Of a DNA stretch of 64,000 bases, positions 61,302 through 64,000 are shown one piece after another; position 1 is the first letter of the stretch; each line of letters begins with the position of its first letter. The notes below the pieces were generated by a model. It searched no databases, had not been told where the DNA came from, and worked only from the letters and a program-made list of their open reading frames with translations. A program made the translations under genes and the position numbers. Origin of the DNA: Escherichia coli (GTDB taxonomy: Bacteria; Pseudomonadota; Gammaproteobacteria; Enterobacterales; Enterobacteriaceae); NCBI RefSeq assembly GCF_013122565.1, contig NZ_CP053258.1; one strand, 5' to 3'.

Positions 61302-64000
61302 TTACCACTGAATACCGGCACCGAGTGCGGCGGAGTATTCACCCTGGCTATTGGTACTACCTTGTAATTTGTAGACCCAACGACCATTGGCGCTCACCAT
61401 CGACACACCTAAAGCAACTGCCGATTCACCGTTGTAAGTACCGCCACCAATAGAGGCCATGCTGGCACCTGGAGTGTAAGCCTGCGGCAGACCGGTCATT
61501 GCCATTGCAGAAGCGATACCACCGCTCAACTTGCTTTCAGTTTTAGACAGTTTGTTATCCATCTCAACCATCCGCTGATCGGTGTATTGCTTCGTTTCCT
61601 GCACGCTTTGCTTCAACTGCGCGTAGTTCACCGCGTCGTTGTTGTTGACGCCAGCGGAGACGTTGCTGATACGAGTCGTACCGCCGTTGCCCCCACCGAG
61701 GGTGATATTGCTATAGTCAACAGAACCATCAGCGTTGGTGTCGTAACGTACACCGCCCGCCTCAGAAGACTTCAACTGTGCCACGTTAACCGCATCGGTA
61801 GCATTTTTACCTGCAGCTACGTTGGTGATACGACGTTGATTGGTAGAGGAACCAACAGAGATCGTATTTTCTTCATCCGCCACGGAGCCTGCTCCCAGCG
61901 CGACGCTGTTATCTGCTGCAGCAATAGAACCAGAACCGATGGAAACGCTCTCTTCTCCTTGCGCGCTTGCTGCCGTACCCGTCGAATTAGCTTTAAAGTA
62001 TTTGGAATCACCGTTGACGACAATGGAACCAGACCCGTTCTCGATGTTGGTAATACGTGTATCAAGGCCGTTGATCTGATTCTCCATCCAGGCGATGTTT
62101 TGCGTATTTTGTGACACACGCTCATCCGTAACTTTCAGTTGACCCACGTTGACGGCATCGGTATCTTGCGAGCCCGCCGCGACGTTAGTGATCTGGCGCT
62201 GACCGTCTTCACTGCCCACAGAGAACTCACCCACTGAGCTCTGCGGCGCGTCCATGTTATAGGCGGTGTAACCAGTCTGTGCGCCACGGGTAGTTTGTGA
62301 ACCATTGCCCATCGCAATGCTGTTTGCATGGTTTGCACGAGCGTTGCTACCGATAGCAATACCATTGATAGCATCTGCCAGAACCAGCGTATTCAGGCCG
62401 ATACCAATCCCCGCATTGCCATTAACGACAGTTTTCGCTCCCATCGCCAGCGAGTCTTCCCCGACGGCCAGTGAGTCTTCTGCCGTTGAGTTGGCGTGGT
62501 AGTACTTGGTCGGTGTAGTTGTGACTGCACCAATCGCATTTTGCAGTTGGCGAACTGTAACGGCGTCATGGGCTTCTGAACCATCGGCTACGTTTATGAT
62601 TTGACGATATTTACCATCATCACCAATAGACAACGCGCCAAGCAATTCGCCGTCTGTGGTGTCATAACCAATAACAGCACCATTTCCCGTAATGCTGGTG
62701 TCACGAGAGCCTTTAACAATCACACGGCTGGAAACAGAGCTGCTACCCAGTGCAATACCGCCGTCGATGGTGCTATTGCTGTTTTGGCCGATGGCGACAC
62801 TGTTTGCGCCGGAAGCGCTGGCGTTATAACCCACCGCGGTTGCAGCCACGCCAGAGGCGCTGGCATCTTCAAAGGCCAGGCCGGTGTCATTAGTACGAAT
62901 ATAATTGACCCCTGCACCGTTTTCTTCGATATAAGCAGCACTGGTGTCACCGGCAATCTGGGTGATCAACATATTCGTGTCGTTCAATTGCGAGCCGTTT
63001 ACTGCATCGGTACTGCCAGCGGAAATATCACCTTTAGCGACATCGGTAACAACGCTATCGGTGCCACCGTGGCTGGCGCTAAATTCTCCGGTAGTACTTT
63101 CCCACATCAGGGCGTCGCCTGCTGAGCCTCCTGCTGAGACATCAATGGCGGCGAGGGCATCGCCAACGCTGGAGTATTCAGTACCATCAATGTTATAGGT
63201 TGGGCCGGTAAAGTTGCCGTTGGCGTCGACAGAAGCATTACCGCCGAAGTAGTCAGCGATGTCGCTGCTTAAGCTGTGAAGCTGGCTACCGTTAATGGCG
63301 TCGGTGCTGACAGAGGTTACCGCGCCAGCCATCACGTTGGTGATTTTGCTGGTAGCGGCAGTGCCATGCGCGGCGCTGAAGGCGTTGACACTGGAATCCC
63401 ACAGAAGAGCATCTTCAAGCGAATCGCTAACCGATGTATCAATCGCGTCCAGGGCGTCGCCAACGCTGGAGTATTCCGTACCATCAATGTTATAGGTTGG
63501 GCCGGTAAATTTGCCATTAGCGTCGACAGAAGCATTACCGCCGAAGTAGTCAGCGATGTCACTGCTTAAGCTGTGGAGCTGGCTACCGTTAATGGCGTCG
63601 GAGCTGGCAGAGGTTACTGCGCCATCCATCACGTTGGTGATTTTGCTGCTGGTGCCGGTGCCATGCGCAGCGCTGAAGGCGTTGGCGCTGGAGTCCCAGA
63701 GCAGGGCATCATCTTGCAGATCGGAAAGTGAATCGCCCAGGTTCGTGATGCTGATGGTGTTCGCCTGGATATTCGCGGTGTTCGTCGTAATTTCGGAGGT
63801 GTTCAACGCGATGTTGGAGGTGTTGGTCGCCACGTCCTCTTTTGTGGCGTTTAACTGAGAGCCATTAACCGCATCTTTACTGGTTGCAGAAATAACACCA
63901 TCTTTCACATTGATGATTTTGTTTTCTGCTACGGTACTGGCAATCGTTCCATCAGCATTTTTGACAATATAGCTGGCGCTGAAAGCCCCCCCGTTAGATG
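61302..64000 (-). CDS. trimeric autotransporter adhesin (EhaG/UpaG-like), C-terminal about 900 aa; 5' end lies outside the window
   Basis: Stop at 61302; C-terminus ...[35 protein letters not shown] is a YadA-type membrane anchor; upstream repetitive Ser/Thr/Gly/Asn/Ala-rich head/neck-like motifs ([14 protein letters not shown]); frame stays open to the window edge. Confidence 0.8.
63158..63751. repeat. Two tandem near-identical ~297-bp repeats inside the adhesin gene
   Basis: 63158-63454 and 63455-63751 align with few mismatches (gcrtcgccaacgctggagtattc...gaagtagtcagcgatgtc...gctaccgttaatggcgtcgg); encode two ~99-aa repeats [49 protein letters not shown]. Confidence 0.8.

Follow-up and report, generated by a model that had tools for sequence, protein, structure and literature searches.

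A trimeric autotransporter adhesin gene of the UpaG/EhaG/SadA type next to lldP in an Escherichia coli chromosome, a rare and mosaic allele

The trimeric autotransporter adhesins EhaG and UpaG of Escherichia coli and SadA of Salmonella are orthologous by position, and their functions include binding to the extracellular matrix, autoaggregation and the formation of biofilms (review PMC7247748). SadA has a partner, the lipoprotein SadB, which raised the surface display of SadA about three-fold in two studies (PMC3953254; PMC11054257). Here, we analyzed a 64,000-nucleotide stretch of E. coli DNA (referred to below as the window), whose end carries a large open frame beside the lactate gene lldP. 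A preliminary description had proposed that this frame encodes an EhaG/UpaG-like trimeric autotransporter adhesin, and the analysis supported that interpretation in all essentials. We are highly confident that the region contains a chromosomal trimeric autotransporter adhesin (type Vc), which is the positional orthologue of UpaG, EhaG and Salmonella SadA and belongs to a sadBA-type module between yibL, on the mtl side, and lldP. The gene family, the locus, the SadB partner, the deletion in K-12 and the variation in length between strains are already published, and the exact protein is present in NCBI as a 'YadA-like family protein'. The addition made here is limited to the allele, which is short, mosaic and rare.

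The features of the region are collected in Table 1. Translation of the minus strand gave a frame of 898 sense codons without any stop before the window edge. The frame closes with TAATAA; on the + strand, the stop codon has its last base at position 61302. The C-terminus of the protein reads ...GAGIQW, with an aromatic last residue. Thus, the large minus-strand frame open to the edge was confirmed, together with its coordinates and its C-terminal residues. The program-made list of open reading frames starts the adhesin at an internal GTG (63908; 868 aa), and the same frame is still open 5′ of this codon. The 5′ part of the gene, about 1.2 kb, lies beyond the window edge, and the window holds the 3′ part, which codes for the C-terminal two thirds of the protein. 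The closest proteins found in the search were E. coli entries named 'YadA-like family protein' or 'trimeric autotransporter adhesin UpaG'. Within the adhesin gene there are also antisense ORFs (100-175 aa), which were rejected as genes and regarded as by-products of a long repetitive coding frame.

Table 1. Coordinates of the adhesin gene, its parts and its surroundings in the window.
Feature	Positions	Strand	Basis
lldP, first gene of lldPRD, conserved downstream neighbour	59235..60890	-	ORF; annotated lldP in 97-98% identical E. coli matches
REP/BIME pair (~61186-61272) and terminator-like hairpin (61157-61128), downstream of the adhesin stop	61128..61272	-	sequence reading, terminator-like site call
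3′ untranslated tail of the adhesin module with the first REP/BIME arm; no K-12 counterpart	61245..61301	-	K-12 alignment starts at 61244
Trimeric autotransporter adhesin gene, 3′ 2,697 nt (898 codons and stop), SadA/UpaG/EhaG group	61302..63998	-	open frame, Pfam, locus
YadA-type membrane anchor, fragment aa 838-898	61305..61487	-	PF03895; Hia anchor structures; UpaG/EhaG identity
Membrane-proximal conserved passenger, aa 674-837: head repeat block 674-718, neck/stalk units 723-760 and 776-808, final coiled coil into the anchor	61488..61979	-	Pfam; SadA 2yo3; 93-100% aa identity to UpaG/EhaG from P0121 aa ~1110 on
Two more YadA-like head blocks, aa 381-421 and 511-567, with neck/stalk aa 466-505 between them	62298..62858	-	Pfam; SadA 2yo0
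297-bp tandem repeat, 1.9 copies, 90% matches	63141..63710	-	TRF; similar to SadA fragments 2yo2, 2ynz

The chromosomal position of the gene was compared with that of the described adhesins. Downstream of the adhesin stop (61302), lldP starts at 60890 on the same minus strand, and the same-strand genes lldP, lldR, lldD and trmL are 97-98% identical to E. coli. In K-12, lldPRD shows 98% identity to the window. In the matching E. coli genomes, this slot is occupied by a 'YadA-like family protein' (1543-1715 aa), upstream of which follow a gene for a SadB/YajI-family (DUF3251) lipoprotein and then yibL, yibT and mtlR. The gene of this slot is annotated as 'trimeric autotransporter adhesin UpaG' in CFT073 (1778 aa) and as 'adhesin' ECs_4480, that is EhaG, in O157:H7 Sakai (1588 aa). 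The proposal of an EhaG/UpaG-like adhesin next to lldP is borne out by this shared slot and by a nearly identical C-terminus. The position is that of sadBA, from mtl/yibL to lld, directly 5′ of lldP and on the same strand; its lldP side was read in the window and its yibL side in strains L004, CFT073, Sakai, PapRG-06-5 and 33F4. The REP/BIME stretch behind the adhesin stop resembles another REP-containing intergenic region.

The domain structure of the 898-aa fragment was determined with Pfam. The C-terminal YadA-type anchor named in the preliminary description proved to be a strong match in the profile search: YadA_anchor (PF03895) was found at fragment aa 838-898 with E=2.6e-19 over the full model (1-60 of 60). 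In addition, YadA_stalk (PF05662; neck/coiled-coil) gave eight matches with E=1.3e-10 to 2.5e-6, and YadA_head (PF05658) gave four matches at E<=3.6e-4, with three repeat blocks at aa 381-421, 511-567 and 674-718. Of the features that define a trimeric autotransporter adhesin, the visible part of the protein possesses a YadA-type anchor and a passenger built of heads, necks and coiled-coil stalks. A search of the PDB agreed with this picture. The solved SadA fragment 2yo0 aligned with aa 481-746 (E=1.5e-124) and 2yo3 with aa 621-824 (E=2.4e-77), and the SadA DALL/FGG fragments 2ynz and 2yo2 matched with E~1e-22. The last ~85 residues were matched by the Hia anchor structures 3emo, 2gr7 and 2gr8, and aa 510-634 by the solved YadA chain 1p9h (E=6.7e-13). 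The Pfam and SadA matches are far stronger than chance would produce. The NCBIfam models for named adhesins (EmaA, Ata, Vomp, BimA, YadA) were also searched, and none reached its cut-off; the best was EmaA with 186.5 bits vs 3000, and YadA itself obtained 94.8 bits vs 750. Membership in EmaA, Ata, BimA or YadA was ruled out by these sub-threshold scores, and the likeness to them consists of shared domains only.

The repetitive, head/neck-like build that had been noticed earlier was evident at the level of both DNA and protein. The 297-bp tandem repeat codes for two modules of 99 aa, identical at 84/99 residues, which contain a DALL motif, a neck (NGSQL) and an FGG motif. In the whole adhesin fragment we counted eight neck motifs, three DALLW/DALMW motifs and two FGG motifs. 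DALL, FGG and HANS are the domain names in use for such elements of the stalk. The DALL/neck/FGG module is of the kind that makes the stalk length vary between alleles.

To describe the distribution of the gene, complete E. coli genomes were searched with the 459-nt anchor end (61302-61760). It was present in 4,154/5,426 genomes (~77%), in one chromosomal copy each and always at 90-100% identity. The adhesin gene is therefore not rare accessory content, and K-12 is among the minority of strains without it. The view that it is accessory content in a K-12-like backbone holds as far as the absence from K-12 is concerned and does not hold with respect to rarity. The allele-specific part (61900-64000) gave a different result: 0/5,426 complete genomes covered 80% of it, and the best one was ~80% identical over half of its length. 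The present allele is known from only a handful of assemblies.

On the basis of the described homologues, the following mode of action may be proposed. The preprotein would be exported through Sec by means of an extended ESPR signal peptide. Three chains would each give their four-stranded C-terminal segment (61305-61487) to one 12-stranded barrel in the outer membrane, with assistance of BAM, and the three passengers would thread out and zip into one trimeric fibre composed of YadA-like heads, necks, DALL/FGG inserts and coiled-coil stalks. SadB, an inner-membrane lipoprotein predicted to be encoded just upstream, would improve the surface display. Such a surface fibre could bind extracellular matrix and cells and promote autoaggregation and biofilm formation. 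That the protein probably trimerises we infer from its homology to the trimeric SadA and Hia crystal structures. We also infer the export route, the dependence on SadB, the adhesive function, and the completeness and expression of the gene in this genome.

As regards expression, it is possible, though we consider it the less likely state of affairs, that the gene is intact and ordinarily silent, so that it would be a cryptic adhesin unless de-repressed. Totsika and co-workers reportedly found in 2012 that upaG and ehaG are repressed by H-NS. The promoter lies outside the window, and nothing in the window argues for expression. In the work of Grin et al. (PMC3953254), the conditions for native expression of sadBA were stated to be unknown, and inducible promoters were used. 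Against permanent silence, the anchor and C-terminal stalk are 98% identical to UpaG in amino acids vs 84% at third codon positions, which indicates purifying selection and therefore use. Moreover, the gene is kept in 77% of complete E. coli genomes.

The part of the protein beyond the window was deduced from database relatives. In a large protein collection, we found a three-member cluster of E. coli proteins of 1299 aa. Only one database protein, P0121 (QJU26385.1 / WP_171460152.1, 1299 aa, from a 4.82-Mb E. coli chromosome), is identical across all 898 visible residues (898/898), which form its C-terminus. The 401 additional residues at its N-terminus start with an ESPR signal peptide (aa 1-45, E=8.6e-14) and also contain a long YadA head as well as two neck/stalk units. 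The contig of the cluster representative, L004 (GCA_018578885.1), shows 98.6% DNA identity to window positions 55001-64000 and served as a proxy for the sequence beyond 64000. The L004 locus is intact and consists of mtlA, mtlD, mtlR, yibT, yibL, a SadB-like gene of 227 codons, a 43-bp gap, the 1299-aa adhesin and lldPRD. The 227-aa SadB-like protein carries a ...LTGC motif resembling a lipobox. A SadB/DUF3251 gene stands directly upstream of the adhesin in L004 and in all compared strains; the corresponding position is outside the window in the present genome.

Since a 1299-aa protein with an ESPR and a YadA head has precisely these 898 residues as its C-terminus, the adhesin gene is very probably intact beyond the window. 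It is very unlikely that the frame closes just past the edge into a short fragment, as had been considered at the outset, because P0121 with its identical tail runs 401 residues further to the ESPR. We also weighed whether the gene is a pseudogene, truncated or disrupted 5′ of the window, of which only a non-functional 3′ remnant is seen here. The window does end after 898 codons with the 5′ end unseen, and several database relatives are labelled 'partial', though these may be mere truncations at contig ends. However, the 2.7 kb of repetitive sequence contain neither a stop nor a frameshift, the identity to the full-length protein encoded on a 4.82-Mb E. coli chromosome extends over every visible residue, the two other members of the cluster also have 1299 aa, and the locus in L004 is intact. 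We therefore consider a pseudogene highly improbable.

The absence of the gene from K-12 was examined at the level of single nucleotides. In MG1655, yibL (b3602) is directly followed by lldP (b3603), in agreement with the preliminary description, according to which K-12 has only yibL in this slot. The alignment of K-12 with L004 contains a clean gap of 5,205 bp (L004 8762-13966), which begins 13 nt past the yibL stop and ends 66 nt past the adhesin stop; at the junction, 2 nt overlap. The deletion junction corresponds to window positions 61244/61245 and falls within the first REP of the REP/BIME pair, which is complete in the window, L004 and CFT073. This cut through an otherwise complete pair argues that K-12 represents the derived, deleted state, in which a ~5.2-kb loss took away the adhesin gene together with the upstream sadB lipoprotein gene. 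The terminator-like hairpin retained in K-12 sits there after yibL. The deletion of the adhesin locus from K-12 was already published by Grin et al. 2014 (PMC3953254), and our mapping of the junction agrees with it.

The remaining part of the window was also compared with K-12. Between yicI and lldP it is colinear with K-12 and about 96-99% identical to it, apart from the following differences. In the LPS core cluster, the identity to K-12 drops to 74-80% on the waaQ-waaG-waaP-waaS side (31001-35400), and a match to O157 Sakai (98.4%), reaching up to 34280, takes in this side; the waaB-to-waaL side is K-12-like. At 45608-45668, htrL/yibB is missing. Small divergent patches are located near 21535-21749 and in the trmL-lldD spacer.

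A sliding DNA comparison revealed a mosaic of allelic segments within the adhesin gene. Over the last ~470 nt, the gene matches the allele of E. coli PapRG-06-5 at 100%, EhaG at 98% and UpaG at 94%; calculated over the last 453 nt, the identity is 100% to PapRG-06-5 and 98.2% to EhaG. Positions 61863-63100 show 57-92% identity vs all common alleles and 94-100% vs L004. At the protein level, the last ~190 aa, comprising the C-terminal stalk and the anchor, are 93-100% identical to UpaG and EhaG, as expected of an orthologue, and the last ~460 residues are mostly >90% identical to them, except for a variable patch of coiled coil (60-73%) that corresponds to P0121 aa ~1020-1110. Compared with the best of 120 relatives, the distal two thirds of the protein are 45-85% identical. 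The SadB-like protein of L004 is 70-74% identical to the SadB proteins of PapRG and CFT073. Apart from a handful of sequences of its own kind, no protein exceeded 78% identity to it, and the SadB alleles of Escherichia, Salmonella and Pseudocitrobacter ranged throughout from 64 to 78%. Searches for a foreign donor of the divergent part, made with the adhesin and SadB, gave nothing closer than 73-78% outside this small cluster. Generally, this locus is highly diverse.

The combination of typical anchor-end DNA with a divergent passenger and a divergent SadB partner, the latter seen in L004, suggests that the whole module is a rare, deep allele recombined onto a common anchor. A more far-reaching version seems rather doubtful to us. 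It holds that the sadBA module is a deep rare form with a 1299-aa fibre, whose distal passenger and SadB are each <=~78% identical to other alleles, that it was recombined near 61770-61860 to an ordinary anchor, and that it could have a binding specificity or antigenic type unlike that of UpaG, EhaG and SadA, being kept by diversifying selection or derived from an unsampled enterobacterial donor. Finally, the gene beside lldP could be a different trimeric autotransporter acquired horizontally (e.g., of the Eib, Saa or YadA type) instead of the UpaG/EhaG orthologue; this reading is the least probable of all. In its favour, the passenger differs strongly from common E. coli alleles in its central and N-terminal portions (60-90% nt, 45-85% aa), the allele is absent from the complete E. 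coli genomes, and the linked SadB-like protein, seen in L004, does not exceed 78% identity to other alleles. Against it, an ordinary E. coli allele in the same slot agrees fully over the last ~470 nt; the flanks, the orientation and the sadB-type gene upstream correspond to the sadBA module; colinearity of the proteins extends from the ESPR to the anchor; and both SadB and the passenger are highly polymorphic across Escherichia generally.

The gene shows that this strain keeps a sadBA-type adhesin module deleted in K-12. The putative surface fibre is relevant to colonisation, biofilm formation and surveys of vaccine antigens, and the rare allele illustrates how mosaic and diverse the locus is. 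Typing by PCR or serology with upaG or ehaG as the basis would probably overlook the present variant or assign it a wrong size.

Among the known systems, UpaG of CFT073 (c4424 / C_RS20895, 1778 aa) occupies the same slot, with the order yibL, DUF3251/SadB gene, adhesin and lldP. Alternating head/neck/stalk modules that end in a YadA anchor are common to both proteins, and an ESPR and a YadA head at the N-terminus, as in UpaG, are predicted for the present protein from P0121. In 60-aa windows over the last ~100 aa, UpaG and EhaG are 100% identical to the present protein, and over the last 151 codons the identity is 98%. The identity to UpaG decreases to 68-69% over the C-terminal ~1000 aa and to ~43% over the N-terminal 777 aa, and the third codon positions differ by 16% even in the anchor. 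The inferred length of the present protein is 479 aa shorter than that of UpaG (1299 vs 1778 aa). EhaG of O157:H7 Sakai (ECs_4480, 1588 aa) is likewise a positional orthologue next to lldP and is 65% identical over the C-terminal ~1000 aa, whereas the present protein is 289 aa shorter, its central stalk is 45-75% identical, and some patches of the DNA reach no more than 61-66%. In RefSeq, relatives that have this anchor bear the label 'ehaG'. Judging from a passenger that is mostly 45-85% identical, the ligand specificity of the present allele may differ from that of UpaG and EhaG.

The solved fibre fragments of SadA from Salmonella enterica (STM3691, 1461 aa) come from a different genus and align with the window protein at values up to the E=1.5e-124 given above. 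SadA and SadB show the same operon logic, with a trimeric lipoprotein encoded upstream, and the same mtl-lld location (PMC3953254); a sadB gene in the present module is predicted from the 98.6% identical relative L004. The distal stalk modules of SadA differ from those of the present protein in number and order. YadA of Yersinia, the prototype of the trimeric autotransporter adhesins, shares PF03895, PF05658 and PF05662 with the present protein. In contrast, YadA is plasmid-borne and consists of a single head, a stalk and an anchor (about 455 aa), whereas the present protein is a multi-head fibre of the SadA type.

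The site at which K-12 (MG1655) lost about 5.2 kb, comprising sadB and the adhesin gene, was located in the window at 61244/61245. This junction falls inside the first REP of a REP/BIME pair, and a 2-nt microhomology (CT) was found there. Because the junction cuts the first REP, only a half-BIME was left after yibL in K-12. The coordinates of the REP/BIME pair are listed below, together with those of a SadB-like lipoprotein gene carried by L004, the contig of a relative.

Features associated with the adhesin gene
Feature	Location	Remarks
REP/BIME pair and terminator-like hairpin	window 61128-61272	3′ of the adhesin stop
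SadB-like lipoprotein gene, 227 aa	L004 9274-9957	off-window; linked to the same adhesin allele in L004

The SadB-like protein of L004 shares at most 78% identity with any SadB beyond its own small group, and SadB alleles across Escherichia are 64-78% identical to it. Such diversity is unusual for a chaperone-like protein of this length. The first residue of the gene as called is translated as I, which implies a non-ATG start codon.

The K-12 segment used for comparison with the window begins at yicI and covers window positions above 5674. In the LPS core-oligosaccharide cluster, the waaQ-waaG-waaP-waaS side (31001-35409) shows just 74-80% identity to K-12, and megablast returned no K-12 match for 34295-35409. 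A 98.4% match to O157:H7 Sakai takes in this side and extends to 34280. The adjoining waaB-to-waaL part (35410-45607) is K-12-like, with 95-97% identity. On these alignments, the cluster looks mosaic.

Smaller diverged patches were also observed. On the dinD/yicC side (21535-21749 and tile 21001-22000), identity to K-12 is no more than 88% over a short stretch, where the megablast alignment has a gap of ~200 bp. The trmL-lldD spacer tile (57001-58000) shows 92% identity to K-12, compared with 97-99% in neighbouring tiles; the Sakai alignment is interrupted in the same tile, at 57188-57232.

Comparison with K-12 and Sakai, which both carry htrL/yibB between kbl and rfaD/hldD, showed that this gene is missing from the window at 45608-45668. 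At this site, ~60 bp stand for ~1.3 kb of K-12 sequence. The same replacement state is present in CFT073.
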